Source: Nannocystis bainbridge
GTDB lineage: Bacteria; Myxococcota_A; Polyangia; Nannocystales; Nannocystaceae
Assembly: GCF_028368995.1 (NCBI RefSeq)
Contig: NZ_JAQNDL010000001.1
Span: 2,144,001 to 2,208,000, forward strand
DNA length: 64,000 bases
Direction of reading: 5' to 3'
Both the position numbers and the translations under genes were made by a program. Positions 7,177-28,823 of this stretch are shown here, in pieces. The first letter of the stretch is position 1. The number at the start of each line of letters is the position of its first letter. A model generated the notes under the pieces. It did not search any database. It was given only the letters and a program-made list of their open reading frames with translations, and had not been told where the DNA came from.

Positions 7177-7188
7177 GCTGGCGCCGTC

Positions 7189-7608: not shown

Positions 7609-7752
7609 CCCGGCGAGCCGCGCGGCCCCGCGTGGCTCGCCCATGGCGTGAACCCGCCCGACCTGCAGGCGGTCTCGCGGCCCCGCGAGCGGCGCGTCCA
7701 TCTTCCCACCCGCCCCGCGATTCTCGCAACGGGCGCCCGCCGCGACGCGTGG

Positions 7753-7860: not shown

Positions 7861-7877
7861 TCACGGAGACCTCGCCC

Positions 7878-8729: not shown

Positions 8730-8847
8730 ACAGCCCGCGACCTGCGCCTGCGGGGTGAGCCGCCGGTGCGGACCTGTCCGAGACTTCCGGTTTCGCCGCG
8801 CCGCAGGCGCCCTCCGGTTCTCCCGCAAGCGGTGCTAAGGTGGCGTC

Positions 8848-10088: not shown

Positions 10089-10144
10089 GCCGCACGACCC
10101 GAGCAGCGCGAGGCGTCACGTCGCTCGCGGCGGCGCCGTCGCGC

Positions 10145-10283
10145 GAACATCTCGCGCCGACATGTCCCGTGGGCCATGTCACGAGGATCGCCAGTCGGCG
10201 CTCCCGGGATGTCCGCCAGGACATCTCTCGTCATTCACACGCCAGCGAGACGGACACACCAACCTGTCCGGAAGAACAGATTG
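10145..10283. repeat. Loose cluster of GGACATGTCC-like units in 14-bp pairs
   Basis: Pairs at 10158/10172, 10205/10219 and 10260/10274, between convergent genes. Confidence 0.6.
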
Positions 10284-10284
10284 A

Positions 10285-10467
10285 CCGCACACCCCGCCAA
10301 CGCCGAGCGCCGGCCTTTCGCGCCGGCGCCGGTCACATGTCCCTCGGGACAGCTTGCTACAGCTTGAACTCGATCGTCCGCACACCCCGCAAACGCCGAG
10401 CGCCGGCCTTTCGGGCCGGCGCCGGTCAGCTGTCCCACGGGACAGCTTACTGCAGCTTGAACTCGAT
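10285..10467. repeat. Imperfect 93-bp-period tandem duplication covering the ompA-like 3' end and its downstream hairpin
   Basis: Copies 10285-10374 and 10378-10467 both read ccgcacaccccgc.aacgccgagcgccggcctttcg.gccggcgccggtca..tgtccc.cgggacagctt.ct.cagcttgaactcgat. Confidence 0.85.
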
Positions 10468-11901
10468 GCGGCGGTTCTGCGACTTGCCCTTGGCCGTCTT
10501 GTTGTCGGCGATCGGCTCGTCGGGGCCGGCGCCGCGGGTGGTGATCCGGCCGGCGTCGAGGCCCTTGTCGACCATGTACTGCTTGACCGCGTCAGCGCGC
10601 CGCTTCGAAAGGTCGACGTTGTGGTCGCGGTCGCCGGTGCTGTCGGTGTGGCCGCTGACCTCGACCTTGACGTCGGGGAAGTCCTTCAGGACCTTGACCG
10701 CGTTGTCGAGGGTCGGCCGCGACGTCTTCTTGATCGTGTCCTTGTCGACGTCGAAGAAGATGCCCTTGATCACCCCGGTGAACTTGGTGACCTGCTTCGG
10801 GATCTCGTCGGCGCAGCCGTCGGAGTCCTGGTAGTTGTTCTTCGTCTCCGGGACGTCCGGGCACTTGTCCTCGGCGTCGGGGATGCCGTCCTTGTCGCGG
10901 TCGGGCGGCGGGCAGCCGTCGGGCGCCACGCCCGGGACCTGCGGGCACTGGTCCTTGCTGTCGACGAAGCCGTCGCCGTCGCTGTCCTTCTCCGGGCAGC
11001 CGTCGGGCGCCACGCCCGGCTCCTGCGGGCACGCGTCCTGGCTGTCGAGGAAGCCGTCGCCGTCGCTGTCCGGCTCGGGAGTGGCCAGCGGGCAGCCGTC
11101 GGGCGCCACGCCCGGGGTCGTCGGACACTTGTCGACCTTGTCCTTGTAGCCGTCGCCGTCGCTGTCCGGCTCGGGCGCCGGCGCCGGCTTCTTCTTGTTG
11201 AGGACGAGCGACAGGCCGAGCAGCACCTCGAGGTGGTTGGTGCGGCCGCCGTCGGTCCGGTACTGCGCGGTCGCGTTGTCGCGGACGTCGACGCGCAGCA
11301 GCAGGCGCTCGTTGACGTAGAACTTCACGCCGCCGCCGAAATGGAGCGTCGGGTCGATGTCCTTACCCAGTCCGCTGGTGCCCATCAGGCCGTACCCGAT
11401 GAGGGCGAACGGAGCCACCCGATACGGCAACTGCAAGATACCGTAACCGCGGAACATCCCGATCACCGCGCTCTGATTCGAGGTCGCGGTCTTGGTCGGC
11501 GCCACTCCGCCCTCGATCTCGAGGCCGAGGAACGGCAGCGGGTAGTAACCGAACCGCAGGCCGATGTCGGGCGCGACCGTCTTGTACGGCTGCCAGGTCA
11601 CGCTGGGGTCGCTGGGGTTGTAGAGCTCGTGCTCCTTCGACGGCAGCAGGATGCCGCCGTAGATGCCGAGCTCGAGCTGATGGCGGGTCGGGCGGTGGCG
11701 CTTGATCCACGGCGTGCCGTCGCGGTCGGCCGCGCGCTCCTTCTTCTTCGCCTGCTTCGACGCCTTGGCGTCGGTCGACGCGCCGGCCGGCGAGACGGTC
11801 ACCGAACCGCCCGCTGCCGCGCCGGCGGGCTCGGCCGCGCGCGCGGTCGAGGAGATGGAGAGGGCCACGGCTGCCACGACAGAGGACGAGAATTTGGACA
11901 T
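10447..11901 (-). CDS. OmpA-family outer membrane protein: beta-barrel, 4 thrombospondin type-3 repeats, OmpA peptidoglycan-binding domain
   Basis: Signal peptide from MSKFSSSVVAAVALS; DSDGDG..D..D.CP repeats; SGHTD..NVDLSKRRA..NRRIEF. Confidence 0.92.
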   Translation of the reverse strand: MSKFSSSVVAAVALSISSTARAAEPAGAAAGGSVTVSPAGASTDAKASKQAKKKERAADRDGTPWIKRHRPTRHQLELGIYGGILLPSKEHELYNPSDPSVTWQPYKTVAPDIGLRFGYYPLPFLGLEIEGGVAPTKTATSNQSAVIGMFRGYGILQLPYRVAPFALIGYGLMGTSGLGKDIDPTLHFGGGVKFYVNERLLLRVDVRDNATAQYRTDGGRTNHLEVLLGLSLVLNKKKPAPAPEPDSDGDGYKDKVDKCPTTPGVAPDGCPLATPEPDSDGDGFLDSQDACPQEPGVAPDGCPEKDSDGDGFVDSKDQCPQVPGVAPDGCPPPDRDKDGIPDAEDKCPDVPETKNNYQDSDGCADEIPKQVTKFTGVIKGIFFDVDKDTIKKTSRPTLDNAVKVLKDFPDVKVEVSGHTDSTGDRDHNVDLSKRRADAVKQYMVDKGLDAGRITTRGAGPDEPIADNKTAKGKSQNRRIEFKLQ

Positions 11902-12284
11902 GGTCGAACCCACGCTGAGACGACGACCGTCACGCGAGCGACGGCGACCGGTTTGTACATAAGATCGCGGGCGCTGCCTAGACGAATTGCTCGCGATGCG
12001 ACGACGGCGATCCCACGGATCCGCCACCAACCTCCCCAAACGCGACCTGTACGTTACGCCAGGTTGGCCGCTTTGGGGCTCGTAAACGGGCGTTTTGGCG
12101 GGAATTATTGCGAGCACCTGGGCGCCCGATCCGCGCCCGCCCGCGCCCGCCCGCCCGCCATCTGTATTTTGGGACATGTCGCCAGGGACCCGGGGAGGTC
12201 GTCGTCGCCCCCGGGTTTGCCTGTGCGCGAGCGACGTCGTCGCCACGCTTGACGCCTCGGTACGGCCGCGCTCACCATCCCCGC

Positions 12285-14630
12285 ATGTTTCGAATTGATG
12301 TGCGAACCAGCTTGGTAGGCGGCCTCGGCCTGCTCGCGCTCGAGGGCTGCGGCAACGTGTGCGGCGACGACGGCCTCGTGTGGAATCAGGCCGACAACCC
12401 CGCGTGTCAGCAGGTCACCGCGAGCGTGGGCGACACCGAGACGACCGAGTCGACGACGAACGATCCGACCGACACCGCGCCGACGACGACGACGACCGAC
12501 ACGCCGACGTCGACCATGGGCTCGGGCGAGATGTGGTGCAAGGACGCCGACGGCGACGGCTTCGGCGACCCGACGATGTGTCAGCCGGACATGTTCCCCG
12601 GCTCGGTGCCGAACGCCGACGACTGCGCCGACGACAACGCCGACGCGTTCCCCGGCTCGGCGGAGCTCGACTCGATGACCGCGTGCATGGAGGACGCCGA
12701 CGGCGATGGTTGGGGTGACAGCGATCCGCCCGAGGGCGTCGAGCCTGGCACCGACTGCGCCGACGACAACGCCAACGCGTACCCGGGCGCGGCCGAGATC
12801 GAGTCGATGACGGCCTGTATGGAGGACGCCGACGAGGACGGCTGGGGCGACGACATGCCGCCCGAGGGCGTCACGCCCGGCACCGACTGCAACGACGACA
12901 ACAGCACGATCTTCCCCGGCGCGGCCAAGGACCTGCCGCCCGACCAGTGCACGCAGGACTCCGACGGCGACGGCTCGGGCGACAGCATGCCCGACGACCC
13001 CGACGTCCCGCCGGGCAACGACTGCGCCGACGACGACCCGTTCACCTTCCCCGGCGCCGCGCCCAACGACAGCGCCGAGGCGTGCATGACCGACGCCGAC
13101 GGCGACGACTGGGGCGACGACATGCCGACGGTGCCCGAGGCGGTGCCCGGCACCGACTGCGCCGACGACAACCCGCACGCCTTCCCCGGCTCGGCCGAGA
13201 ACGACTCCGCCAACGCCTGCATGGAGGACGAGGACGGCGACGGCTGGGGCGACGACATGCCGCCCGAGGGCGTCACGCCCGGCACCGACTGCAATGACAC
13301 CGACGCGGCCACCGGCCCCGGCGTGGCCGAGAACGAGGTCGACCCGAACGTGTGCCAGACCGACGGCGACGGCGACGGCTGGGCCGATCCGGACCCGGAC
13401 GACGACGACGCCGTGCCCGGCACCGACTGCGACGACAACGATCCGTTCACCTTCCCCGGCGCCGCGCCCAACGACGACCCGACGGCGTGCATGACCGACG
13501 CCGACGAGGACGACTGGGGCGACATGATGCCGGGCTCCGGCGTCACGCCCGGCACCGACTGCACCGACCGCGACCCGCTCGTGCACGAGAACTGCGCCCG
13601 CTGCGAGCCGAACCAGGTCAAGTGCGTCGACAAGGACCTCCACACCTGCAACGGCGAGGGCTCCGCCGAGAGCGTCGTCACCTGCGACAACGGCTGCGAC
13701 GACGCCGGCCTCAAGTGCTGGGACCCGCTCTCGGTCGAGGCTGGCGACAGCATCTGCGTCGACCTCGGCATGCCGGCCCAGCTGAGCGCCGTGGCCATGG
13801 GCGGCGACGGCGACTACGACTACAGCTGGTCGCCGGCCGCCACCCTGAACGATCCGGCGATCGCCAACCCGGCGGCGACTCCGCTCGGTCCGACCACCTA
13901 CACCATCGACGTCAACGACGGCGAGGGCAACACCGCGTCGGACAGCGTCACCGTCTACCTCAAGAACCAGACGCTGCAGCTCGACCCCGACATCTGCGAC
14001 ACCTACGACTTCCCGGGCGCCGGCGAGGACGCCGATCCCGCGACCAACTGGTCGTGGAACGACAACACGCAGACGCTGTGCCAGACGGTCAACGGCAAGA
14101 GCGCGGCGCTGTTCTGCGGCTGGGACCTCGACAACGCCACCATCACCGGCACCTTCCAGGTCACCGACGACGTCAACGACGACGACTGGATCGGCTTCAT
14201 GTGGGGCCTCCAGAACACCGACCACTACTACCTGTTCTCGTGGAAGCGCATCGGTCAGAACTTCGCCAACTGCGGCGGTCAGCTGCCCGCGGGCATGCAG
14301 GTCAAGGTCATCGACGTCGCCGACCCGATGGTCGCCCCGCAGACCTGCGCCGACCGGCTCCAGCCGGCCGACACCGTCAACTCGAAGCTGCTCGTGCCCG
14401 TCGGCGAGTTCACCACCACCGGCTGGGCCGAGGCCACCGAGTACACCTTCGAGCTGACCCACAAGGCCGGCGGCGAGATGACCATCATCGTCCGCCTCAA
14501 GGCCAACAACAACGTCGTCGCCATGAAGACCTTCATGGACACGACCTACGCCAGCGGCAAGTTCGGCATGTACACCAAGTCGCAGGTCAACGCCTGCTTC
14601 TCCAACTTCGTCGCCAGCTGCGTGCCCTGA
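12285..14630 (+). CDS. Thrombospondin-like lipoprotein: 8 Asp-rich Ca-binding repeats, Cys-rich module, PKD/Ig-like domain, TSP C-terminal-like domain
   Basis: LEGC lipobox; repeats C.DADGDGWGD..PGTDC.DD....FPG.A; C-terminal QTVN..GTF..DDDWIGF..WK..Q..DTTYASGKFG..SQ...FS. Confidence 0.8.
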   Translation: MFRIDVRTSLVGGLGLLALEGCGNVCGDDGLVWNQADNPACQQVTASVGDTETTESTTNDPTDTAPTTTTTDTPTSTMGSGEMWCKDADGDGFGDPTMCQPDMFPGSVPNADDCADDNADAFPGSAELDSMTACMEDADGDGWGDSDPPEGVEPGTDCADDNANAYPGAAEIESMTACMEDADEDGWGDDMPPEGVTPGTDCNDDNSTIFPGAAKDLPPDQCTQDSDGDGSGDSMPDDPDVPPGNDCADDDPFTFPGAAPNDSAEACMTDADGDDWGDDMPTVPEAVPGTDCADDNPHAFPGSAENDSANACMEDEDGDGWGDDMPPEGVTPGTDCNDTDAATGPGVAENEVDPNVCQTDGDGDGWADPDPDDDDAVPGTDCDDNDPFTFPGAAPNDDPTACMTDADEDDWGDMMPGSGVTPGTDCTDRDPLVHENCARCEPNQVKCVDKDLHTCNGEGSAESVVTCDNGCDDAGLKCWDPLSVEAGDSICVDLGMPAQLSAVAMGGDGDYDYSWSPAATLNDPAIANPAATPLGPTTYTIDVNDGEGNTASDSVTVYLKNQTLQLDPDICDTYDFPGAGEDADPATNWSWNDNTQTLCQTVNGKSAALFCGWDLDNATITGTFQVTDDVNDDDWIGFMWGLQNTDHYYLFSWKRIGQNFANCGGQLPAGMQVKVIDVADPMVAPQTCADRLQPADTVNSKLLVPVGEFTTTGWAEATEYTFELTHKAGGEMTIIVRLKANNNVVAMKTFMDTTYASGKFGMYTKSQVNACFSNFVASCVP

Positions 14631-17284: not shown

Positions 17285-20023
17285 TCAGAACTCGAGCCGC
17301 ACGCCGAGCGACGGCAAGATCGGCAGGCCGGTCTGCAGCTGGCGCTGCTGCAGGTTGTACGAGTAGACCCACGCCTCGCCGTTCTGGCGGTTGTAGACGT
17401 TGATGATGTCGAGATAGAAGTTCGCCGTCACGCGCTTGAACGTGAAGCGCTTGTCGACGCGCAGGTCGAGCTGGTGGAACGCCGGCAGCCGCCCGTCGCG
17501 GCCGAACCACGGCTCGTAGCCGTCCTGCACGAACGCGCTGTCGAAGTAGGAGACCGACGGGTTGCCGCTGACGAGGCGGAAGCGGCCGCCGATCTGCCAG
17601 CCGCGCGGCAGCTTGTAGACGGCGAGGATGGTGAGGATGTGCGGCTGGTCGAAGCTGAACGGCCGGTAGTCGGCGCCGGGCCGGGCCTGGATCAGGCTCT
17701 TCATCAAGGTGTAGCTGACCCACCCGAACAGCCGCTTGGTCAGCGCCTTGCGGACCAGCAGCTCCATGCCGAAGATCTGGCCGGTGCCCTGGTTGGCGAA
17801 GTTCTCGAGCCGGATGTCGCCCGAGACCGGGTCGCGCATCAGCACGCTCGAGGAGGTCGAGCGGTCGAACACGTACTTGTAGAATCCGGTGACCTCGGCC
17901 TCGATGCCGACGCTGTCGAACACCTGGGCCACGCCGAGGCTGGTGTGGACCGCCCGCTCGATGCCCGAGCGCGGGTTGCCCCACACCGGCGCGAGGCTGA
18001 TGAGGTCGGGGATCTGGCTGTAGAGGCCGACGCCGCCCTTGACCGCCGTGTTCTCGCCGACCTGCCAGTTGAAGCGCACGCGCGGGTCGACCGTGGCCTT
18101 CTTGATCTGCAGCGCGTAGTAGGTCACGCGCGCGCCGGGGTAGATCGTGAACTTCTCGCCGAGGCCGATCGTCGCCGTGGTGTAGATCGCCGGCGTGGCG
18201 TAGTTCTGGCCGATGTCGGCGACGTTGTAGACGCCGGTGTCGCCGGTCCCGGCCCCCGCCGGCACGCCCGGCGCGCGGGCCCCGATCTCGTAGCGACCGG
18301 CCTGCAGCTCGGTGCCGACGCGGATCGCCGCTCGCTTGCTCAGCTGCCGCGACGCCTCGGCGCGCCAGCTGAACTCGTACTTGGGGAAGTTGAAGGTGAA
18401 GAGCCCGCCGAACGCGCCCGACAGCGACTGGTAGTTGATCGACGGCGTGATCAGGAAGTCCCACGGCCCGTCCTGCTTGCGGTAGACGAGGTCGAGCCGG
18501 TGGAACAGGATCGCCGTGCGCGCCTGGTTCTCCGAGCCCGTCATCGTCTCGTTCGGGCCCTGCGCGATCACCCGCAGGCGGTCGTCCGAGCCGAACCACC
18601 GCACCGACAGCTCGCCGCCGCCGACCGGGTAGTCGAACAGGAACTGATAATCATAGTAGCGCGGCGCCTGCGACAGCCCGAGGCCGATGTCTTTCGGCAG
18701 CGCCGCCTTGAGGATCGCGTCGACGTAGCTGCGGCGGAAGCTGGTGACGAAGCTGCCCTTCTTGATCGGGCCCTCGAGCATGATCCCGGCGTCGAACACG
18801 TCGGCGTCGACGTAGCCGTGGTAGCCGTCGCGTCGGCCCTTGCGCGGGTTGACGTTGATGATGCCGCCGATCGCGTCGCCGAACCGGCTGTCGAAGTTGC
18901 CGGGGATGAAGTCGATCTGCGCGAGGATGTCGGAGTTGAAGGTCGACGACAGGGCCCCGAAGTGGAACAGCTGCGGGATCTCGTGGTAGCCGAGGTACGT
19001 CTTCGAGTCGCCGGGCGCGGCGCCGCGGATGATCAGCAGGCCGAGGCCGAACGGCGCCCGCGCGACGCCGGGGAAGTTCTGCAGCGACTTGAGCGCGTCG
19101 CCCTGCGTGCCCGGCAGGTTGAAGATCTCCTCCGGCGTGATGGTGCGACGCGCGACCTCTTCACGGGCGTCGCGGCGCTGCTTCACCACCGTGCGGAACG
19201 GGTTCGACACCAGCCGCCGGGCGAAGTACTTGACCTCGAGCAGGTCGCCCTTGGCCAGCTCCTCGACCACCTCGTAGCGGTCGAAGCCCTGCGCCAGGGC
19301 GATGATGCGGACCTTGCCGTCGGGCACGCCGCGCAGCTCGAACGAGCCGTCGGGGGCGGTCTCGGCGCGCATGGTCCAGGCCGGTTCGGGCTCGTCGCCG
19401 TAGATCTTTTTGGTGACCTGTCCCACCGGCCAGTCCGGCGGCGCGGGCACCACGAGCACGCTCGCGCCCGACACCGGGACGCGCTGGCCGGCCTCGAGCA
19501 GCACGCCGCGCAGCCGCACCGGACCTGTCCCTTGGGACTGCTGGGCGGGTTCGCCCGCGTCGGTCTCGGGCTCGCCGGCGTCGACCTCGGGCTCGCGGTC
19601 CGCGGGCTCCGGCGGCAGCGGCGGCGGGGCGGCGATGTCGATGCCGACCTTGAGCACCACCTCGATCGGCCGGCCCTTGTAGAGCCCGGGCGTGTAGCGC
19701 AGCTGGGCCACGGCGGACTTGGCGAGCGCGTCGAGCTCGGGGTGCACGCTCTGCACGACCTCGAGCTCTTTCGGCACCCCGTCGACGCCGACCACCAGCT
19801 TGACGACGACCTGTCCCTGCGGCGGCGCGGGCAGGCGGCGCAGATCTTCGGGGTACTCGAGCTCGACGCTGTTCTGCAGCGCCGGCTGGACCAGGTCGGC
19901 CGGGTCCTGCGCACGCGCGGAACCGGCGTGCAGCGCCGCGGCCAGGGTCAGCACCGCGCCCAGGCCGTGCAGGCCGGCGGTCCCGATCCGGAGGCTGGCG
20001 AGGCGGCGAGGTCGCGGGCGCAA
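17285..20023 (-). CDS. TonB-dependent receptor with N-terminal TonB C-terminal-like and carboxypeptidase-regulatory-like domains
   Basis: YPE..QGQVVVKLVVGVDG (TonB_C); plug LPGTQGDALKSLQNFPGV..IIRG; C-terminal LGVRLEF. Start uncertain: TTG at 20023 chosen for the GGAG upstream and the signal peptide ending ARA. Confidence 0.85.
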   Translation of the reverse strand: MRPRPRRLASLRIGTAGLHGLGAVLTLAAALHAGSARAQDPADLVQPALQNSVELEYPEDLRRLPAPPQGQVVVKLVVGVDGVPKELEVVQSVHPELDALAKSAVAQLRYTPGLYKGRPIEVVLKVGIDIAAPPPLPPEPADREPEVDAGEPETDAGEPAQQSQGTGPVRLRGVLLEAGQRVPVSGASVLVVPAPPDWPVGQVTKKIYGDEPEPAWTMRAETAPDGSFELRGVPDGKVRIIALAQGFDRYEVVEELAKGDLLEVKYFARRLVSNPFRTVVKQRRDAREEVARRTITPEEIFNLPGTQGDALKSLQNFPGVARAPFGLGLLIIRGAAPGDSKTYLGYHEIPQLFHFGALSSTFNSDILAQIDFIPGNFDSRFGDAIGGIINVNPRKGRRDGYHGYVDADVFDAGIMLEGPIKKGSFVTSFRRSYVDAILKAALPKDIGLGLSQAPRYYDYQFLFDYPVGGGELSVRWFGSDDRLRVIAQGPNETMTGSENQARTAILFHRLDLVYRKQDGPWDFLITPSINYQSLSGAFGGLFTFNFPKYEFSWRAEASRQLSKRAAIRVGTELQAGRYEIGARAPGVPAGAGTGDTGVYNVADIGQNYATPAIYTTATIGLGEKFTIYPGARVTYYALQIKKATVDPRVRFNWQVGENTAVKGGVGLYSQIPDLISLAPVWGNPRSGIERAVHTSLGVAQVFDSVGIEAEVTGFYKYVFDRSTSSSVLMRDPVSGDIRLENFANQGTGQIFGMELLVRKALTKRLFGWVSYTLMKSLIQARPGADYRPFSFDQPHILTILAVYKLPRGWQIGGRFRLVSGNPSVSYFDSAFVQDGYEPWFGRDGRLPAFHQLDLRVDKRFTFKRVTANFYLDIINVYNRQNGEAWVYSYNLQQRQLQTGLPILPSLGVRLEF

Positions 20024-20286
20024 GCGGCAGGAGCATGCTCCAAGCCCGGCGCCCCTGGCTAGTGCCGCCGAAGCCGGCGCGCGCGGTCTGGCCGGCGTGC
20101 GCACGGCCGGGAAGCCCGGGCCCCACCTCCTGCGTAATGTCTCTTCCCGGGGCTTGCCTCGGCGTCCCACCGGACAATCGTTCCCCTGCGGGGTCGAAAG
20201 CCGCGCCGACGCGGCAAGGCCGCTGGCCCCCGGTGGTACACTCGTAACGGCTCCCTGCGGCCCGTTGGCCGCGCAGCTCCGCTCCC

Positions 20287-22530
20287 ATGCGCTCCTTCGG
20301 CTGGCTTCACTTCACGGACCTCCACCAGGGCCTCGACGCCCAGGGCTGGCTGTGGCCGGGCGTCCGCGAGGTCCTGCTGGCCGACCTCGAGAAGCTGCAC
20401 GCCCGCTGCGGCCCGTGGGACCTGGTCCTGTTCAGCGGCGACCTGACCCAGCGGGGCAGCGCCGCCGAGTTCGCGCGCCTCAACCAAACCCTGCAGCAGC
20501 TGTGGGATCACCTCCGCGCCCTCGGCTCGACCCCCGCGCTGGTGACCGTCCCCGGCAACCACGACCTCATCCGCCCCGACCCGCGCCGCCCCGAGTCGCT
20601 GGTGCTCGGCCGCTGGGACACCTATCCCGAAGTTCAGGTCGAGTTCTGGCGCGACGCCAGCTCGCCCTACCGCGCCCTCGTCGACCAGGCGTTCGCGCCG
20701 TACAGCGACTGGCTCAAGAGCCACCCGTTCGCCGGCCTGCAGCTGCAGCGCGGCATGCTGCCCGGCGACTGCTCGGCGGTGCTGGCCAAGGACGGGCTCA
20801 AGCTCGGCGTCGTCGGCCTCAACAGCGCCTTCTTGCAGCTCGGCGATGGCGACTACACCGGCAAGCTCGCGCTCGACGTCCGCCAGCTGCACGCGGCCTG
20901 CGGCGGCGACGGCCCGGCGTGGGTCAAGGAGTGCGACTTCGCGTTGCTGATGACGCACCACCCGCCGACCTGGCTGCAGGCCAAGGCCCGCGACGAGTTG
21001 GTCGCCGAGATCGCCCCGCCCGGGCGGTTCGTCGCTCACGTCTACGGCCACATGCACGAGCACGCGAGCAGCGTGATCGCCATCGGCGGCGCGCAGGGTC
21101 GGCGCGAGCTCCAGGGCAGCTCGCTGTTCGGCCTCGAGGTCTACGGCGGCAAGGTCGATCGCCGCCACGGCTACACCGCCGCGCGCATCACCGTCGACGA
21201 CAACAACGAGGCGACCTTGCGGCTGTGGCCGCGCGTCGCCAAGAAGCACGCCGCCGGTCACTGGCGCGTCGTCCAGGACCTCGACGCCTTCGAGCTCGGC
21301 GACGATCAGGGCACCCGGCCCGAGCCGCTGCCGCCGCCGCGTCGGCGCACGCCCCCGCCTCCGCCCCCGCCCCCGGTCAACCCGGCCAACCTGGTCGCCA
21401 CCGGACCTGTCCTTTCGGCCAGCACGTCCGGATCGCACCCTTCGATCTCGCAGACCGCCCCGATCCCGCTCGGCGTGATCACCTCGCTGTCGGGCGGCGC
21501 GCCCGGCGACTCGGGCATCTTCTACTCGTCGATCGCCGCCCGCGTGCAGCCACCGGGCGCGCCCTACAACATCAACTGGCACGTCCACCGCGCCGAGGAG
21601 GAGCGCACCGCGCTCAACTACCTCGATCAGCCGGGCGCGCCGGTCGTGCTGTGGGGCCCCGACAAGTTCGGCAAGACCTGGATGTCGCAGTTCTTGACCG
21701 ACATGGTCTACCAGGCCGACGGCGGCGCATGCCGGGTCGTCGCCATCAACCTCGACACCTTCGACTACGAGTCGCGCAGCGACTACGGCAACTTCATCCG
21801 CGAGTTCGCGTTCCAGATCGTCGGCTCGATCGGCGGCCCCGAGGACTGGGTCCCGACCTTGTGGAAGTCGCCGGGCAGCGTCAACCAGAAGCTCGGCCGG
21901 CTGATGCGGGACAACGTGCTGCCGCTGGCGAGCACGCGGGTGATCCTCGCGCTCGACCGCGTCGACGCCGTGTGGGGCCTGCCGTTCAAGGACGACTGGT
22001 TCGGCATGCTGCGCGCGTGGGCCGAGGATCCGCGGCTGGAGAAGCTGCGGCTCGTGCTCGGCATCAGCACCACGCCGCGGCGGTTGATCGAGCGGACCAC
22101 GCAGTCGCCGTTCAACCTGAGCCCGCCGATCGTGCTCGGTGACCTCACGCGCGAGCAGGTCGAGAACCTGTCGCAGCTGTACGGGCTCGACTGGACGCCG
22201 CAGGACTTCGGCGCGCTGATGAGCCTCGTCGGCGGGCACCCCTACCTCGTACGCCTGGCCATGCACAGGGCCAACCTCGCCGGCGGGCTGTCGGCGCGCG
22301 AACTGCTGGCCGAGCCGTCGAACCTGTTCGACGACTTCCTCCAGCGCTACGCGCGGCGCCTCCACCTCCACCCCGAGATGATGGCCGGCGTGAAGCGGCT
22401 GCGCAGCGACGCGCTGGCGGAGCTCGACTCCGACGCCTCGGCCGCGCTCGAGAGCAGCGGCATCGCCGTCGAGGAGAAGGTCGGCTTCTACCGCCTGCGC
22501 TATCGGCTGTACGAGCGGCTGCGGCCATGA
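20287..22530 (+). CDS. Calcineurin-like metallophosphoesterase fused to an AAA-like (AAA_35/STAND-type) P-loop domain
   Basis: Phosphoesterase motifs TDLH, SGDL, GNHD, THHP, GHMH; Pro linker; GPDKFGKT Walker A; LALDRVD Walker B; GGHPYL. Confidence 0.85.
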   Translation: MRSFGWLHFTDLHQGLDAQGWLWPGVREVLLADLEKLHARCGPWDLVLFSGDLTQRGSAAEFARLNQTLQQLWDHLRALGSTPALVTVPGNHDLIRPDPRRPESLVLGRWDTYPEVQVEFWRDASSPYRALVDQAFAPYSDWLKSHPFAGLQLQRGMLPGDCSAVLAKDGLKLGVVGLNSAFLQLGDGDYTGKLALDVRQLHAACGGDGPAWVKECDFALLMTHHPPTWLQAKARDELVAEIAPPGRFVAHVYGHMHEHASSVIAIGGAQGRRELQGSSLFGLEVYGGKVDRRHGYTAARITVDDNNEATLRLWPRVAKKHAAGHWRVVQDLDAFELGDDQGTRPEPLPPPRRRTPPPPPPPPVNPANLVATGPVLSASTSGSHPSISQTAPIPLGVITSLSGGAPGDSGIFYSSIAARVQPPGAPYNINWHVHRAEEERTALNYLDQPGAPVVLWGPDKFGKTWMSQFLTDMVYQADGGACRVVAINLDTFDYESRSDYGNFIREFAFQIVGSIGGPEDWVPTLWKSPGSVNQKLGRLMRDNVLPLASTRVILALDRVDAVWGLPFKDDWFGMLRAWAEDPRLEKLRLVLGISTTPRRLIERTTQSPFNLSPPIVLGDLTREQVENLSQLYGLDWTPQDFGALMSLVGGHPYLVRLAMHRANLAGGLSARELLAEPSNLFDDFLQRYARRLHLHPEMMAGVKRLRSDALAELDSDASAALESSGIAVEEKVGFYRLRYRLYERLRP

Positions 22531-25500
22531 CCCCGCCACATCCGAGCTCGGGCGCGGGTCTCCACGGCGCCCAGTTCCAGGTCGGCGGCGCGGTCCAGGC
22601 CGGCGCCTTTTACATCGAGCGCAAGGCCGACCGCGAGCTGCTCAGCGCGCTGATGCGGGGCGAGTTCTGCTACATCCTCGCCCCGCGGCAGATCGGCAAG
22701 ACCAGCCTGCGCGTGCGCGCGGCCAAGCGGCTGCAGGGCGGCGGCGTCCGCTGCGTCAGCATCGACCTCACCAACATCGGCTCGACGCTGGTCTCGATCG
22801 ACGACTGGTACTTCAGCATCGCCCTCGAGATCGCCGAGGCGATGGGCCTGCCGAGCCCCGAGCTGTTCTGGAGCACCCACCAGAACCTCACCCCCGTCCA
22901 CCGCTGGTACCGCTTCCTCCGCAACGAGCTGCTCGACCGCACCGAGGCGCCGATCGTCGTCTTCATCGACGAGGTCGAGTCGGTGCAGGCGCTGCCGTTC
23001 AGCGCCGACGACTTCTTCGCCTCGATCCGCTCGGCCTTCAACCTGCGGGCCGAGGACCTGGCCTACGAGCGCCTCACCTTCTGCCTCCTCGGCGTCGCCG
23101 CCCCCGCCGACCTGATCTCCAACTCGGTCCGCACCCCGTTCAACATCGGCCGCGAGATCCGCCTCGAGGACTTCTCGCGCGGCGAGCTCGACGCCTTCCG
23201 GCCTGGCCTCGAGGGCCTGGGCGGCAGCCCCGACGCCCTGCTCGACGCCGTGTACGCCTGGACATCTGGCCATCCGTACATGTCCCAAAGGCTATGCGAC
23301 GACCTGGTCCGGCGCGGCCCGGTCAGCGACAAGACCGAGGCCGAGCGGGTCGACGACTCGGCCTACACCCTGTTCCTGCGCAACGGCCGGACCGCCGACG
23401 CCAACCTCGCCTACGCCGAGAAGCGGCTCAACGCCAACGCCTCGCGGGAGCGCTCGCGCGACCTGCTCGACCTCTACCGCCGGCTCCTCAGCGGCGAGCC
23501 GGCGCCGGCCGAGCCGAACAACCCGCTGCAGATCGAGCTGCGCCTGACGGGGCTCGCGGCCGAGGCGCGCGGCGAGCAGGGCGACATCCACCTGCAGGTC
23601 CGCAACCTCGTGTTCGCCGAGGTCTACGACCACAAGTGGCTGCGCGAGCGAGAGAAGGAGCAGCGGCTGGCCGAGTTCGTGGCCCGCTGGGAGGGCAAGG
23701 GCCGCCAGGACGACTACCTGCTGCGCGGCACGGCGCTCGAGGACGCGCTGGCGTGGTCGCACGGGCGCAGCGACCTGACCCTCGGCGACCACGAGTTCCT
23801 GCTCGCCGGCCTCAACTTCGCCCGCCGCGAGGCCGAGGCGCGCCACCGGCTCGAGGAGGCCGCGCGCATGCAGGAACAGGCCCGCCTGGCCGCGCTCGAG
23901 GAGCAGCGCAAGGCCGAGCGCGAGCGCTACCGGGCCGACATCGAGCGAGAGCGGCGCGAGCGGGCCGAGGAGGGCGCCGTCTCGCAGCGGCGCACCATCT
24001 CGATCCTCACCGGCACCGTCGCCACCCTCGGCCTCCTGCTGGCCCTCACCGTGTGGCAGTTCGTGGTCGCCGAGCAGAGCAAGGACCAGCTGTCGCGGAT
24101 CTCCGAGCGTCGCAACGAGGACGCCCGGCTCGACCGCCTCGGCGCCGACGCCCTCCTCTACGCCCAGCAGCCCGGCAAGGAGCGCGACGCCCTGCTGACC
24201 GCGATCAAGGCCGCCGCCGACGCGCTCGCCCGCGACGGCGAGGTCCCGCCGCGCGTCATGCAGGGCCTGGCCGCCGCGGTCGCCACCCCGGTCCAGCGGC
24301 CGCTGGTGCTGCGCCACGCCGAGGCCGTGCACGGGGCCCACTTCTCGCACGACGGCACCCGCGTGCTCACGGCCAGCAAGGACGGCACCGCCCACCTGTG
24401 GGACGCCGTCTCGGGCAAGACGATCCGCGTGCTCGAGCACGCCGCGCCTGTCCTTTCAGCCAGCTTCTCGCGCGACGACACCCGCATCTTCAGCGTCGGC
24501 GCCGACAAGAGCGCGCGGCTGTGGAACGCCGCCACCGGCGACAACCTCGAGGAGTACAAGAACGTCGCCGTCCCGCCGCAGCGGATGATCGCCGGCCTGG
24601 CCGACAACGGCTACAGCGTCTACTTCCTCGGCGTCGACCGCGGCGCCCACCTGGTCGACATCCGCGGCAACAAGGCGCGCGACCTGCCGCGCACCCTCAG
24701 CGGCAACGTCACCGCGATCGCCCTGGCCGACGGCGAGCCGCTGGCGGCCACCGGCGGCAGCGACGGCGTCGTGCGCCTGTGGGACCTCGACACCGGCGAG
24801 CTCCAGATCGAGCTGAAGCGGCACAAGGGCAACGTCGCCGCGGTGCTGCTGTCGCCGCTCGGCGGCCGGCTCGTCAGCGTCGGCGAGGACGGCGACGCCC
24901 GCGTGTGGACCACCGCCGGCGCCGCGGTCGCGACCCTCCAGCACGGCGATCCTGTCCTCGGGGCCAGCTTCTCCGCCAGCGGCGACCGCTTGCTGACGTG
25001 GAGCCTGGCGCGGGCGGTCGTGTGGTCGAGCGCCGGCAAGCAGCTGGCCAGCCTCACCGACCCGCGCGAGCTGCTCAAGCAGGCCGCCTTCTCGCCCGAC
25101 GACCGCCGCGTCGCCACCGTCGGCGCCGGCACCGGCGGCGGCGCGGGCACGGCGGTCAAGCTGTGGGACCCGGTCAAGGGCGAGGTCGCGGCCACCCTCA
25201 CCGGTCACACGGGACAGGTCCTTTCGGTCAGGTTCTCGCTCGACGCCTCGCGCGTGCTGACGACCAGCGAGGACAACACCGCCCGGCTGTGGAACAGCGC
25301 CGGCGGCCAGCCGCTGGCCACCCTCGAGGGTCACACGGCGCCCGTGCTGGCCGCCGAGTTCTCGCCCGACGGCGCCCGGATCCTCACCGTCGGCGGCGAC
25401 AACACCGCGCGGATCTGGGACGGCTCGCTCAACAACGCCGTGCCGACCCTCAAGGGCCACGGCGCCTCGGTGCGGCTGGCCCGCTTCTCGCCCGACGGCA

Positions 25501-26561
25501 GCCGGATCGTCACCACCAGCGACGACAAGACCGCGCGTCTGTGGGACGTCGTCAGCACCCGCAACATCCGCACCCTCGAGGGCCACGGCGGCCCCGTCGT
25601 CGCCGCCGTGTTCGCCGGCGACGGCTCCGGCCGGCTGCTCACCTGGGCCGAGGAGGACTCCAACCTGCGCCTGTGGGACGCCAGCAACGGCGACGAAGTC
25701 GCCGTGCTCGGCCACGCCGGACATGTCCTCGGGGCCAGCTTCTCCCGCGACGGCGCGCGCATCGTCTCGGCCGGCGCCGACGACACCCTGCGCCAGTGGG
25801 ACGCCACCACCGGCGCGGTCGTCGGCGAGCCGTGGCAGGGCACCCGCGGCCAGCAGACCGTCGCCGGCTTCGCCCCCGGCGGCCGCTACGTCGTGCTCGC
25901 CAGCCGCGACAGCAACACCGCCCAGCTGATCGACGTCGAGGCCCAGCGCTTCATCACCGACCTCGTCGGTCACAGCGCCCCGGTCGAGGGCGCCGTGTTC
26001 TCGCCCGACGGCGAGACCGTCGTCACCCTCAGCGCCGACCACACCGCCAAGCTGTGGGTCGCCCGTTACGGCAGCGAGATCGCCACCCTCGACCCTGCCG
26101 CCGGCGCCATCGCCTCGGCCGCGTTCTCGCGCGACGGCGGCCGGCTCGTCCTCGCCACCGCGCGCGACGCCTGGGTGTGGTCGCTCACCGGCCCCGACGA
26201 CCGCCCGCAGGTGCTCGCCACCCTGCTCGGCCACTCCGCCTCGCTGCTCCACGCCACCTTCTCCGTCAACGGTGGGCGCATCGTCACCGCCTCGTCCGAC
26301 AACACCGCCAAGCTGTGGGTCGCCCCCGTCGACTCCTCCAACTACGACTTACTGGCGACGCTGCACGGCCACGCCGCCGCCGTCAACTACGCCGAGTTCT
26401 CGCCCGACGGCCGCAACATCGTCACCGCCGGCCGCGACGGCCGCATCAAGCTGTTCCCGACCTCGGTCGAGGACCTGCTGCGCAAGGCCTGCGACGAGCT
26501 CCGCCCGCACCGCGACGACTACGAGCAGGTCGAGGCCGACTGCCGCCTCGCCGGCGGCTGA
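22527..26561 (+). CDS. AAA-like (AAA_35/STAND-type) NTPase with coiled coil, TM helix and many WD40 repeats
   Basis: YIERKAD..APRQIGKTS, IVVFIDEVE, SGHPY; YLLRG.AL..A..W; TM ILTGTVATLGLLLALTVWQF; repeated GH...V..A.FSPDG.RI.T.S.D.TARLW; ATGA overlap with the upstream gene. Confidence 0.9.
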   Translation: MTPPHPSSGAGLHGAQFQVGGAVQAGAFYIERKADRELLSALMRGEFCYILAPRQIGKTSLRVRAAKRLQGGGVRCVSIDLTNIGSTLVSIDDWYFSIALEIAEAMGLPSPELFWSTHQNLTPVHRWYRFLRNELLDRTEAPIVVFIDEVESVQALPFSADDFFASIRSAFNLRAEDLAYERLTFCLLGVAAPADLISNSVRTPFNIGREIRLEDFSRGELDAFRPGLEGLGGSPDALLDAVYAWTSGHPYMSQRLCDDLVRRGPVSDKTEAERVDDSAYTLFLRNGRTADANLAYAEKRLNANASRERSRDLLDLYRRLLSGEPAPAEPNNPLQIELRLTGLAAEARGEQGDIHLQVRNLVFAEVYDHKWLREREKEQRLAEFVARWEGKGRQDDYLLRGTALEDALAWSHGRSDLTLGDHEFLLAGLNFARREAEARHRLEEAARMQEQARLAALEEQRKAERERYRADIERERRERAEEGAVSQRRTISILTGTVATLGLLLALTVWQFVVAEQSKDQLSRISERRNEDARLDRLGADALLYAQQPGKERDALLTAIKAAADALARDGEVPPRVMQGLAAAVATPVQRPLVLRHAEAVHGAHFSHDGTRVLTASKDGTAHLWDAVSGKTIRVLEHAAPVLSASFSRDDTRIFSVGADKSARLWNAATGDNLEEYKNVAVPPQRMIAGLADNGYSVYFLGVDRGAHLVDIRGNKARDLPRTLSGNVTAIALADGEPLAATGGSDGVVRLWDLDTGELQIELKRHKGNVAAVLLSPLGGRLVSVGEDGDARVWTTAGAAVATLQHGDPVLGASFSASGDRLLTWSLARAVVWSSAGKQLASLTDPRELLKQAAFSPDDRRVATVGAGTGGGAGTAVKLWDPVKGEVAATLTGHTGQVLSVRFSLDASRVLTTSEDNTARLWNSAGGQPLATLEGHTAPVLAAEFSPDGARILTVGGDNTARIWDGSLNNAVPTLKGHGASVRLARFSPDGSRIVTTSDDKTARLWDVVSTRNIRTLEGHGGPVVAAVFAGDGSGRLLTWAEEDSNLRLWDASNGDEVAVLGHAGHVLGASFSRDGARIVSAGADDTLRQWDATTGAVVGEPWQGTRGQQTVAGFAPGGRYVVLASRDSNTAQLIDVEAQRFITDLVGHSAPVEGAVFSPDGETVVTLSADHTAKLWVARYGSEIATLDPAAGAIASAAFSRDGGRLVLATARDAWVWSLTGPDDRPQVLATLLGHSASLLHATFSVNGGRIVTASSDNTAKLWVAPVDSSNYDLLATLHGHAAAVNYAEFSPDGRNIVTAGRDGRIKLFPTSVEDLLRKACDELRPHRDDYEQVEADCRLAGG

Positions 26562-26632: not shown

Positions 26633-26902
26633 GCAGCGCCTGGACCCCGCGCCACGCCGCCGACGAGCCCGCGACGATCGTCGCGCGGGACCGACGACAC
26701 CACCAGCGCGCGCTCCTGCGGCCCGCAGCGGAGCGGGCGCTCCACGACATCCTCCCGCGGCTCTGCCTGCGGGTCCGGGCCACCTCGACGGCGCGCCGCG
26801 GCCCGACCTCACCGCGCTGACAGCTCCCCGCGCCGCCTCCGTGAGCGCCGCGCAGGCCGCGGCGGTGGCATCAGCGCGCGTTCTGGGCTATCCCCGGGGC
26901 GC

Positions 26903-28642
26903 ATGCGCCCTCGCCCGCTCGCCCTCGCCGCCCTCGCGCTGACGCTCGCCGGCGGCTGCCTCAAGATCCCGGCCGAGCCCAAGTCCCCGGAGACAGGTCC
27001 CGAAGGACAGGTCGCGACCCTGGCCTGGCCCGGCGCCGCGATCGACAAGCTGTACCGCCCCGGCGAGGTCCGCGTGTACACGATGATGCAGTCCGGCAAG
27101 CCGATCGGCACCTCGTGGGGCCGCTACGAGGGCCCGGTCGACGGCGAACCCGGCCACTTCCGCTTCGCCACCCGCATCGAGCTGCGCCCGCCCGGCCGCG
27201 ACGGCAAGCCGGCCGAGCCGCTGCGCAGCTCCGGCGAGATCGTCGTCGACGCCCGCGGCGACCTGATCCGCGGCTTCGAGCGCAGCAACGCCGCCGAGCT
27301 GGTGTTCGAGCGCAAGGGCGACGCGCTCCACTTCAACTCCGGCCGCGAACGCGACGAGATCACGTACCGCAGCGGCGACGCGTTCATGGCGTTCTCGGCG
27401 ATCTTCCACGAGGAGCTGATGTTCGGCCTGCGCCGCCTCGAGGCCGGCGAGCTGGCGTGGCGCCTGGTCAGCCTGTCGGGCTCGATGCCGACCGAGTGGA
27501 CGGCGACGCTGACGATCCCCGACCCGGCGGCGCCCGGCCGGGCCACGGTCAAGACCAACCTCGGCGAGACGGTCACGCTGCGCGACGGCCGGATCGAGAA
27601 GGTCCAGATCGAGGCCGACGACGTCGAGATCCAGGTGCCGGTGCAGCCGCCGACCTGGCCCGAGTGGCAGATCGCCGGGCCACCTGTCCTCAAGTACAGC
27701 TCGCTCCCGGGCGCCCGATTCACCCGCCGCGAGGTCGAGCTGCCCGGACGGCCCGGCGAGCCCGCGCTGGCCGGCGAGGTCCTGCTGCCGCCCGGTCCGG
27801 GCCCGTTCCCCGCGGCGCTGCTGCTGCCCGGCACCGGCCAGCAGGACCGCTTCGGCTTCGCCGGCCCGCCGCCGGTCGACCTCGGCAGCCACACGATCAC
27901 CGACGCGCTCGCCGAGGCCGGCTTCGCGGTCCTCCGCTTCGACGAGCGCGGCTTCGGCAGCAGCGCCGACGGCCCGATCTCCTACCTCGGCCAGCTCGAG
28001 GACGCCCGCCGCGCGCTGCGGACCCTGCTGGTCCAGGACGAGGTCGACCCCGACCGCGTGGTCCTCGTCGGCCACGGCGAGGGCGGCTGGAAGGCGCTGA
28101 CGCTGGCCGCCGAGGACCCGAGCGTCAAGGCGGTGGCGCTGCTGGCCACGCCCGGCCGCCCGTACGAGCAGATCCTGCGGGCGCAGGGCGAGGCGGCCCT
28201 GCAAGCGGTGCCGCCCCAGCTCCGCGACGACGCCCGCAAGACCCAGAACAAGACGCTGCAAGCGCTGAAGACCGGCCACGGGGTGCCGCCGGAGCTGGCG
28301 GCGCAGGCGCTGTGGGTGCGGGAGATCCTTCAAGTCTCGCCGGAGGCGCTGATCGCCGGCAGCGAGGCGCCGCTGTGGATCGCGCAGGGCAACAAGGACT
28401 TCGAGGTCGACCCGAACCGCGACCCCCAAGAGCTGGTGAAGCTGGCCAAGCGCCGCAAACGCAAGGCCGAGCTGCGCTCGTTCGCCGACCTCGACCACCT
28501 TTTTAAACCCGAGCCCGAGAACTCCAACCCGGCCCGCTACCTCGACGCCGCCCGCACCGTCGACCACGCGTTCCTCGGCCAGCTTACGACCTGGCTGCAA
28601 GGCCAGATCAAGGCCGCGCCCGCCAAACCGCGCGGCAATTGA
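26903..28642 (+). CDS. Lipoprotein with C-terminal alpha/beta hydrolase (S9-like) domain
   Basis: MRPRPLALAALALTLAGGC lipobox; GPGPFPAALLLPG, RFDERG, DLDHLF; GHGEGG at the nucleophile elbow has Gly where Ser is expected. Confidence 0.8.
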   Translation: MRPRPLALAALALTLAGGCLKIPAEPKSPETGPEGQVATLAWPGAAIDKLYRPGEVRVYTMMQSGKPIGTSWGRYEGPVDGEPGHFRFATRIELRPPGRDGKPAEPLRSSGEIVVDARGDLIRGFERSNAAELVFERKGDALHFNSGRERDEITYRSGDAFMAFSAIFHEELMFGLRRLEAGELAWRLVSLSGSMPTEWTATLTIPDPAAPGRATVKTNLGETVTLRDGRIEKVQIEADDVEIQVPVQPPTWPEWQIAGPPVLKYSSLPGARFTRREVELPGRPGEPALAGEVLLPPGPGPFPAALLLPGTGQQDRFGFAGPPPVDLGSHTITDALAEAGFAVLRFDERGFGSSADGPISYLGQLEDARRALRTLLVQDEVDPDRVVLVGHGEGGWKALTLAAEDPSVKAVALLATPGRPYEQILRAQGEAALQAVPPQLRDDARKTQNKTLQALKTGHGVPPELAAQALWVREILQVSPEALIAGSEAPLWIAQGNKDFEVDPNRDPQELVKLAKRRKRKAELRSFADLDHLFKPEPENSNPARYLDAARTVDHAFLGQLTTWLQGQIKAAPAKPRGN

Positions 28643-28743
28643 GCGGGCCCGCGAGGCCGCGCAAGGCAGCCGCGAGGCCCCGCGAGGCCGCGCGAGGCAA
28701 TCGCCCGCCACGGGCCGGCGGCCGACTCTGCGCCGGAGCAGCC

Positions 28744-28823
28744 GAGCATGTCCCCTTTGACATGCACTCGTGGACATGCCCTCGCGGACATGTCCCTTCG
28801 CGCATGCCCTTCAGGCCATGTTT
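28744..28823. repeat. 14-bp-phased array, 6 units
   Basis: Units at 28744, 28758, 28772, 28786, 28800 and 28814, between convergent stops. Confidence 0.9.

Follow-up and report, generated by a model that had tools for sequence, protein, structure and literature searches.

To our knowledge, work on the NLR-like immune proteins of bacteria has so far dealt with soluble proteins of one chain (Avs, bNACHT) that sense phage proteins in the cytoplasm. A division of labour between chains is known from paired plant NLRs and from hetero-oligomers of the NAIP/NLRC4 type, soluble cytoplasmic NB-ARC or NACHT proteins in which a sensing NLR co-assembles with an executing one. Here we analyze two overlapping genes of Nannocystis bainbridge, located in a 64,000-nucleotide stretch of contig NZ_JAQNDL010000001.1 (positions 2,144,001 to 2,208,000; hereafter the window). 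Gene 1 encodes an A subunit, in which a calcineurin-like metallophosphoesterase (MPE) precedes an AAA_35 module, and gene 2 a B subunit, in which a second AAA_35 module is followed by a long helix, a transmembrane (TM) helix and a WD40 β-propeller array. The pair is best read as one device, an NLR-like receptor in two chains, each with its own nucleotide-binding oligomerisation module (NOD) of the AAA_35 family. We put a probability of about 0.55 on its being a split, membrane-spanning receptor-effector system of the conflict type; the resemblance to paired plant NLRs and NAIP/NLRC4 is an analogy of logic only, namely of divided labour.

The closest published logic is that of the nSTAND2 two-gene operon, where both genes carry STAND modules, the eroded one bears GT4 or HEPN effectors, and a toroidal hetero-multimer has been predicted (Kaur, Iyer, Burroughs and Aravind 2021, eLife, PMC8195603, section 15). 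The window pair follows this scheme as far as the logic goes: both products have a STAND core, and the eroded one bears the variable effector. The NTPase families differ, however, ours being Pfam AAA_35 whereas nSTAND2 is nearer to the CR-ATPases and Dap3 (PMC8195603). Erosion in our pair concerns mainly the Walker B glutamate, with the P-loop retained, whereas in nSTAND2 the NTP-binding motifs are eroded; and section 15 describes nSTAND2 without a TM helix or an extracytoplasmic repeat sensor, whereas gene 2 has a sensor set apart by a TM helix. nSTAND2 was never among the results of our Pfam scans, which returned AAA_35, AAA_16, AAA_22, ATPase_2 and, in one homologue, a weak nSTAND3; the presence of an nSTAND2 model in the library is unconfirmed.

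Avs, bNACHT and STAND-FGS proteins, which have NACHT, MNS or nSTAND1 cores (PMC8195603, section 7), share with the pair a swappable N-terminal effector, calcineurin-type MPEs included, followed by a NOD in the middle and by repeats or a lectin domain as the C-terminal sensor. They are single chains, whereas in our system effector and sensor are split over two NOD-bearing chains and a TM helix stands between NOD and sensor, which would place the sensor across the membrane. No Avs model of PADLOC matches either window protein at E≤0.01. STAND/CLec conflict systems diversified by diversity-generating retroelements have been predicted to watch the periplasm via TM-anchored sensors, and PF00149 is one of the domains listed for the target proteins (Dore et al. 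2024, PNAS, PMC10907252). In the parts of that article cited here, the proteins are single chains that join a NACHT or nSTAND1 core to a CLec sensor, and paired AAA_35 modules do not come up, whereas the window pair consists of two AAA_35 chains.

The original prediction had called the locus a candidate undescribed system. This goes too far for the two-gene logic with an eroded partner (nSTAND2) and for the MPE effector clade, both of which are published. Of the AAA_35 pair itself we found no description in the literature searched for PF14516 or AAA_35; there, AAA_35 was met once, in passing, as a sigma-factor accessory domain. A 2026 STAND preprint (10.64898/2026.01.04.697583) contains no mention of AAA_35, metallophosphatase or two-gene. 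From the supplements of Kaur 2021 and Kaur 2020 AAA_35 is absent, with Nannocystis and Plesiocystis in organism lists only, and the figure source-data could still list such loci. Our guess is that AAA_35 is the "MNS (Npun2340/2341)" clade named in section 7 of PMC8195603. On our reading, the pair adds a variant to the STAND/NLR-like conflict systems with swappable effectors and sensors; the function and mechanism we propose for it are given below in conditional form.

Conservation of the pair and exchange of its ends

An alignment of 16 MPE-AAA_35 proteins (A1) was scanned against one genome per species (185,579 species). A relative was encoded in 340 of the 388 matched stretches and 79 loci were kept, over which tblastn with four domain queries found 26 that combine an MPE with an A-type AAA_35 module. 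L008 and L036 end before the downstream DNA; all 24 that have it carry a gene-2-type AAA_35 gene directly downstream, and the pair is thus conserved together, a point on which the original prediction had staked its reading. The 24 comprise 19 loci of Nannocystaceae and relatives, all with WD40 sensors, one of Plesiocystis (L050), also with WD40, one from a cyanobacterial metagenome-assembled genome (L027), and three from other Myxococcota (L033, L035, L077). Their junctions are 4-nt overlaps in 18 cases, as in the window, where the predicted ATGA overlap is indeed present; three have gaps of 173, 81 and 2 nt, one has a 10-nt overlap, and two (L004, L010) are not computable. In these two (N. 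exedens and N. pusilla, long-read assemblies), gene 1 is out of frame in the Pro-rich linker, at ~8040-8250 in locus coordinates, through either assembly indels or real frameshifts.

The nearest relatives are from Nannocystis species, with gene 1 orthologues 94-97% identical in N. punicea, N. exedens, N. pusilla and N. radixulma. Since orthologues at 55-97% identity retain both genes and the 4-nt overlap, chance can be excluded. The GC content at third codon positions (0.96 in gene 1, 0.93 in gene 2) also marks both open reading frames (ORFs) as true coding frames, given an overall GC content of ~72% in the window and the genome.

In a survey of the phylum with residues 1-480 of gene 2, 13 of 301 Myxococcota genomes, this one included, matched at E≤1e-10, a patchy distribution. 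We annotated the genes adjoining 13 B-type loci, these being matches outside the window locus, and found an A-type NTPase gene next to eight of them. Three of these neighbours are SIR2_2-AAA_35 proteins; the remainder are one each of MPE-AAA_35 (in the same record as L033), Trypsin_2-AAA_35, Pkinase-TIR-AAA_35 (in divergent orientation), a protein with a 450-residue unknown N-terminus and AAA_16/AAA_35, and a 372-residue ATPase. Of 8,000 candidates scored in a database search with the A-type module, 1,630 reached E≤1e-5; in the 120 matches listed, from which domains were read, the module is preceded by MPE, Trypsin_2, Pkinase, TIR, SIR2_2, CHAT, Trans_reg_C, HTH, PF26355 and, once, a cyclase, and GGDEF was not seen. 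The exchange of effectors on the first gene, which the original prediction had proposed to look for, is therefore a property of the family: MPE, SIR2, trypsin and kinase-TIR occur in the paired loci, and the wider searches add TIR, CHAT and caspase. The other end of the system varies as well. After the TM helix, B-type proteins continue into WD40, TPR (L027) or short unassigned tails (L033, L077), and in the wider searches into Pkinase, CHASE2, MFS-like regions or sequence of no recognisable type.

A second pair, armed and equipped differently, is encoded in the same genome (L080, G000:C1:2838000-2856000). A SIR2_2 protein with a degenerate P-loop (10623-13106, minus strand) is followed, across a GTGA overlap, by an AAA_35-Pkinase-TM-TPR protein (7177-10626, minus strand; TM helix 864-891) whose NOD shares 29% identity with that of gene 2 (E 8e-23). 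BLASTP shows no significant resemblance between the SIR2 protein and gene 1 (best E 1.8). The P-loop region of the SIR2 protein was recognised only on inspection by eye and in a motif search, and the protein forms a very long branch in our tree.

To cover the family at large, we built a joint profile from an alignment of 13 A-type and 15 B-type modules (A3) and compared it with 1.84 billion cluster representatives (50% identity clusters). It matched 27,131 of them at E≤0.001, 13,945 at E≤1e-10 and 8,359 at E≤1e-30, and the family is thus large. The best 70 matches were typed with separate small A and B hidden Markov models, a procedure under which "B-B" may hide further subtypes. Both modules occur on one chain in 22 of them, 11 with A before B, which is the operon order, and 11 with B before A. 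The others have two or three full B-type modules (27), one B and short partial repeats (13), a single B (7) or A-A (1). Pfam scans of 12 of the 70 showed, among others, the architectures Trypsin-TIR-A-B-TM, TIR-A-B-DZR-TM-FGE-sulfatase, caspase-A-B and B-B-TM-TPR-PD40. The fusions argue for A and B modules working together, those in operon order being the best evidence for it that sequences provide.

Modules, effector and sensor

Both proteins match Pfam AAA_35 (PF14516) well above its cut-off of 27 bits, gene 1 with 159 bits (model positions 11-326 of 331) and gene 2 with 82.8 bits (9-243), which bears out the claim of related P-loop domains in the two genes. They share the motifs SPFN (607) and GHPY (650) in gene 1 and TPFN (203) and GHPY (248) in gene 2; these, like the GNHD and Walker motifs also named in the original prediction, are all in place. 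The proposed asymmetry of the nucleotide-binding sites is likewise seen: gene 2 has an intact Walker A and B, whereas gene 1 has an intact Walker A and an arginine after the Walker B aspartate. This division extends to the family. All 15 B rows of A3 have "DE" in Walker B, whereas only three of the 13 A rows have an acidic second residue (DD, DE, DD), the others reading DR, DL, DH, ER or EN. The Walker A signature GK[ST] is kept in 12 of the 13 A rows, L033 having lost the lysine (GGTS). One arginine (R168 in gene 2, R576 in gene 1) does not vary across the 28 A and B rows. A-type NODs probably bind nucleotide but hydrolyse it poorly. In a quick maximum-likelihood tree, one split parts A from B and the B group has a support of 88-93; three SIR2 pairs cluster together on the A side and on the B side alike.

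An AlphaFold2 (AF2) model of residues 1-480 of gene 2, computed from an alignment of 23 B-type sequences (A2), reached a pLDDT of 89.4 and a pTM of 0.80. It shows an α/β nucleotide-binding domain (NBD), a helical lid, a winged-helix-like unit and a long helix (419-479) directed toward the TM segment. Foldseek ranked ORC1/Cdc6, the archaeal ATPases 2qen and 2fna (TM-scores, normalised to the target, 0.60 and 0.58), MalT, Apaf-1, CED-4, Avs3 and Sr35 as matches. For gene 1, we modelled the whole protein from A1 (pLDDT 80.1) and compared it by Foldseek and VIA-align. Its AAA part matches 2qen (Z 21.9, 303 residues, root-mean-square deviation (rmsd) 3.6), 2fna (20.8), ORC2 (18.6), NRC4 (17.5), CED-4 (17.4) and RPP1 (16.8), and Avs3 and Avs4 are among the fold matches of the NOD models. 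By its modelled fold, AAA_35 is an ORC/Cdc6-STAND-type NOD; as ORC/Cdc6 and the archaeal ATPases are its nearest matches, it may lie beside STAND proper. Both chains therefore have the NOD fold of STAND and NLR-like proteins, the B module with GKT and DE and the A module with GKT and DR, and the tripartite order of effector, NOD and repeat sensor is distributed over them as effector-NOD and NOD-TM-WD40; single-chain fusions show this order complete.

The MPE of gene 1 matches Pfam Metallophos over residues 7-258 (E 1.3e-13), with GNHD at residue 90. All five motifs of the PF00149 family (DxH, GD, GNH(D/E), H, GHxH) are present, and D11, H13, G51, D52, G90, N91, H92, D93, H224, G254, H255 and H257 are invariant in 16 aligned homologues, so that the phosphoesterase is intact, as had been predicted. 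The protein has no hydrophobic (TM) stretch. The closest relatives of its MPE (45-58% identity over the domain) are fused to EAD1/7/8, to bDLD1 with SAVED, to TIR, to NACHT, to a dynamin-like GTPase, to NB-ARC with TPR, and to Pkinase with FGE-sulfatase; these identities are higher than those of distant MPE-AAA_35 orthologues over their whole length (35-41%). Fusion to EADs, Death-like, TIR and SAVED domains and STAND cores is the company kept by calcineurin-type effectors of conflict systems, and on these sequence similarities the MPE is a member of a clade already published as such. The passages cited here name calcineurin-superfamily phosphoesterases, predicted to be nucleotide phosphodiesterases, as the commonest effector in GAP1-N1 systems (Kaur et al. 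2020, PMC7159879) and list them among the effectors of STAND-FGS and TRADD-N proteins (Kaur et al. 2021, PMC8195603, section 7). This genome also has the same effector on a STAND protein of the classical single-chain form, with 1,391 residues and the architecture MPE-NACHT-FGE-sulfatase (L112, G000:C2:1756000-1769000, 2994-7169, minus strand), whose MPE is 41% identical to that of gene 1. The NCBIfam anti-phage phosphoesterases DS8 and DS9_1 gave 36.2 and 34.4 bits, far under their cut-offs of 420 and 790.

In structure, the MPE model comes closest, by a wide margin, to Bacillus subtilis YydB (Z 29.6, 317 residues, rmsd 3.9 Å), which the YydD-YydB integrative model (PDB 9a6c_B) likewise shows together with a partner protein; a literature search on YydB/YydD found nothing on function in the papers it returned. 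SMPDL3A, Rv0805, purple acid phosphatases and Lmo2642 follow at Z ~20-21, then GpdQ at 18.5 and Mre11 at 16.6-16.8. The model thus looks more like the phosphodiesterase/nucleotidase group than like the Mre11 nucleases, the shared fold leaving the substrate itself unfixed. Searching the PDB by sequence was unproductive for both proteins (best E 0.18 and 0.62). Where the original prediction had left the output as a nuclease or a phosphoesterase, this ranking favors the phosphodiesterase and makes the nuclease less likely.

Besides AAA_35, gene 2 matches many WD40 and β-propeller Pfam models. Its predicted single TM helix and long WD40 array are confirmed by a single hydrophobic stretch and ~17 blades. 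In place of the proposed coiled coil, the AF2 model shows one long helix, which may form such a structure. A strongly hydrophobic helix lies ~410-550 residues into all 23 homologues long enough to contain it and into all of 12 further Myxococcota homologues. In the 15 residues flanking it, lysine and arginine are more frequent on the N-terminal side in 16 of the 23, equal in six and less frequent in one. Given that the NOD requires cytoplasmic ATP and that there is a single TM helix, the C-terminal array should lie outside the cytoplasm; from the sequence we infer an N-in, C-out single pass with the propellers on the periplasmic side. The array is also the fastest-diverging part of the pair. 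Identities for MPE, A-type AAA_35, B-type AAA_35 and WD40 are 73, 75, 71 and 51% in L005, 64, 66, 60 and 42% in L009, and 59, 67, 64 and 34% in L015.

The tail of gene 2 past the last blade (residues 1320-1341, window ~26484-26549) contains two cysteines, C1323 and C1340, 17 residues apart. If the tail is periplasmic, one may speculate that they form a disulfide.

Proposed conflict-type receptor and competing readings

The conflict-type reading is suggested by the fusion company of the MPE, the SIR2, TIR, trypsin and caspase domains on sister systems, the fast evolution of the sensor, the patchy distribution, and the presence of two differently armed pairs in one genome. Building on the architecture, pair conservation, effector and sensor swapping, fused forms, folds and motif states described above, we infer hetero-oligomerisation, topology, substrate and trigger as follows. 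The B chain would be the receptor, its catalytically complete cytoplasmic NOD connected through the long helix and the TM helix to a periplasmic array of ~17 blades; the A chain would be the output, its NOD having kept the P-loop and lost the Walker B glutamate, with a flexible linker to an active-looking MPE. A ligand in the periplasm, or reaching it, would bind or cluster the propellers, and the TM helix and long helix would relay the signal. B NODs would then bind ATP, oligomerise and recruit A NODs by like-with-like contacts, whereby the MPE domains would be gathered and so activated. These would cleave nucleotides or nucleotide-derived messengers (less likely nucleic acid), changing the state of the cell, most likely toward a conflict-type growth arrest or suicide.

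Several points weigh against this reading. Binding between A and B is so far a prediction, with the single-chain fusions as its argument. The STAND-type phage sensors we know of are cytoplasmic, whereas the sensor here would face outwards. Synteny in the Nannocystaceae (see below) speaks more for vertical retention of a chromosomal gene than for a mobile defence island, and the 16 neighbouring window proteins include no convincing PADLOC defence match, only an OmpA resembling ZorB and one weak match to LmuA. An A-type neighbour is absent at five of the 13 B-type loci in the phylum sample (L099, L107, L108, L109, L111), and, among the rows of A2, the Walker B glutamate is absent in three partner-less B-like proteins (L107, L108, L109) as well as in L110. 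The split between A and B in the tree is weakly supported (SH-aLRT 72). Lastly, the wHTH, HTH and cyclase outputs on A-type modules indicate that the scaffold is not limited to suicide effectors.

Many of these points would suit ordinary transmembrane signalling, which we consider the main rival, if a rather unlikely one. The propeller would sense an environmental, envelope or developmental cue, and the NOD pair would switch on a cyclic-nucleotide or other nucleotide phosphodiesterase that tunes second messengers, e.g. for motility, predation or fruiting bodies. An outward-facing sensor, a syntenic and apparently vertically kept locus without defence neighbours in the PADLOC scan, and the transcriptional and cyclase outputs on A types are what one would expect of such a system, as are CHASE2 on B types and a MPE fold near SMPDL3A and the cNMP phosphodiesterases Rv0805 and Lmo2642. 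Against it stand the conflict-typical architectures of the nearest MPE relatives (EADs, bDLD1, SAVED, TIR, NACHT), the SIR2, TIR, trypsin and caspase domains of sister pairs, the fast sensor evolution, the patchiness and the two pairs with different effectors and sensors in this genome. In PADLOC, the SIR2 domains of sister proteins match ThsA, LmuA and Ago-associated models, the kinase PD-T4-6 and the trypsin Avs1b.

It is improbable that the architecture is as proposed and the MPE a nuclease of the Mre11/SbcD type, degrading DNA or RNA once activated. The MPE part does weakly match a PADLOC model labelled "Effector, Endonuclease" (PDLC00736, 4.4e-07), and phmmer gave faint PDB matches to Mre11/SbcD (E 0.35-0.67). 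Against this, the Mre11 folds in our list rank below YydB, SMPDL3A, Rv0805, the purple acid phosphatases and GpdQ, the Pfam scan detected no nuclease capping or DNA-binding domain, and the prediction cited above from PMC7159879 is of a nucleotide phosphodiesterase. Least probable is that the two proteins act apart as homo-oligomers, their adjacency an old tandem duplication kept by chance or for co-regulation: the B-type loci without an A-type neighbour and the many B-B tandem fusions could be so explained, but the partner is kept in all 24 MPE-type loci with downstream DNA, the translational-coupling overlap is conserved, A lacks a sensor and B an effector, single-chain A-B fusions exist, and the A and B clades mirror one another, as in the three SIR2 pairs.

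Coordinates, neighbourhood and significance

The features of the pair are listed in Table 1.

Table 1. Features of the gene pair, with positions counted from the first nucleotide of the window.
Feature	Position	Strand	Basis
Gene 1, A subunit, 747 aa: MPE effector, disordered linker, A-type AAA_35 NOD	20287..22530	+	ORF with ATG start, Pfam, orthologues aligned over residues 1-747
Calcineurin-like metallophosphoesterase domain, aa 1-345, metal-binding motifs all intact	20287..21321	+	Pfam PF00149, invariant residues, fold match
Pro-rich linker, aa 354-418, predicted disordered	21346..21540	+	pLDDT <50 over 354-418
A-type AAA_35 module, aa 430-743: NBD, lid, winged helix	21574..22515	+	Pfam E 1.8e-46, fold matches
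Walker A of gene 1, GPDKFGKT, aa 457-464	21655..21678	+	GK[TS] kept in 12/13 A-type sequences
Altered Walker B of gene 1, LALDRVD, aa 554-560; Arg 558 in place of the catalytic Glu	21946..21966	+	Acidic second residue in just 3/13 A-type sequences
ATGA, gene 2 start codon over gene 1 stop codon	22527..22530	+	4-nt overlap, likewise computed in 18/24 related loci
Gene 2, B subunit, 1344 aa: B-type AAA_35 NOD, long helix, TM helix, WD40 array	22527..26561	+	ORF with ATG start, Pfam, orthologues
B-type AAA_35 match, aa 25-260; modelled NOD with winged helix extends to ~aa 390	22599..23306	+	Pfam E 2.6e-23, AF2, Foldseek
Walker A of gene 2, APRQIGKT, aa 52-59	22680..22703	+	G57 and K58 invariant in 23 B-type sequences
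Walker B of gene 2, VFIDEVE, aa 145-151	22959..22979	+	D148 invariant in 23 sequences; "DE" in 15/15 B rows of A3
Single long helix running into the membrane, aa 419-479; possible coiled coil	23781..23963	+	AF2 secondary structure
Transmembrane helix, aa 489-516	23991..24074	+	Hydropathy; equivalent TM helix in homologues
WD40 β-propeller array, ~aa 595-1310, ~17 blades, presumably extracytoplasmic	24309..26456	+	Pfam WD40 E 3.2e-92, blade motif spacing, fastest divergence

The neighbours of the pair are ordinary envelope and housekeeping genes, encoding OmpA/TSP3 and TSP_C proteins, an HSP20, a TonB_C/OMP protein, an IF-2B-family protein and a Mur ligase. The TonB_C/OMP gene (17285-20170, minus strand) lies 116 bp from gene 1 in divergent orientation and encodes 961 residues with TonB_C (103-175), a CarboxypepD_reg-like domain and an OMP barrel. 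All 21 Nannocystaceae loci (L001-L021) have it beside the pair, at 57-97% identity, and 15 of the 21 also have HSP20 there; neither gene was seen at the distant loci. The adjacency may be plain synteny or may mark a third component specific to the family; being absent from all distant pairs, the protein has been set aside as such a component for now.

Further observations concern the surroundings. A 629-aa ORF convergent with gene 2 (26888-28777, minus strand) has no Pfam or PADLOC match and recurs, at 81-88% identity, in six close Nannocystis loci only. The weak LmuA match (2.5e-06, residues 159-314) is to a 515-aa ORF at 39066-40613 (minus strand). At 10447-14630, an OmpA with thrombospondin type 3 repeats adjoins an 840-aa thrombospondin C-terminal-like protein, both eukaryote-like adhesion modules. 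A promoter scan gave no sigma-70-like site; its three terminator-like sites, where 1.7 would be expected, lie without exception on the minus strand and are uninformative.

Look-alike sequence was found only in metagenome libraries, with word shares ≤0.29. In three RNA-labelled root-metagenome runs of one study, contigs ~90-99% alike lie on both genes, and one 410-nt contig from RNA-labelled root metagenomes crosses the junction between them; these come from relatives, and DNA carry-over is possible. Metagenome contig ends at 20280-20281 probably mark a drop in similarity.

Of the pair, PADLOC-DB v2.0.0 matches only the MPE part (PDC-S60 at 1.4e-10, in addition to PDLC00736) and the WD40 part; no model covers either AAA_35 module, or the AAA_35 modules of five sister proteins. 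The check that the original prediction had suggested as a mark of novelty thus came out in its favor as regards the NTPase modules, and tools built on these models would miss such loci.

If the proposed mechanism holds, the pair would be a tractable model for hetero-NOD assembly, with one active and one eroded module, and for the passage of a signal across a membrane into a NOD, and it would show what a predatory social bacterium monitors in its periplasm. Extending this to the family is tentative, and we regard it as distinctly more doubtful than the reading of the pair itself: AAA_35 A/B pairs could be widespread outside-in NLR-like receptors, in which B, membrane-spanning and ATP-competent, reads ligands of the periplasm or surface through rapidly evolving WD40, TPR, FGE or CHASE2 domains, co-assembles with a catalytically eroded A and fires effectors of the death type (MPE, SIR2, TIR, caspase, trypsin). 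Were this true, social bacteria such as myxobacteria and filamentous cyanobacteria would gain an immune or kin-surveillance receptor that senses attack before the cytoplasm is breached.

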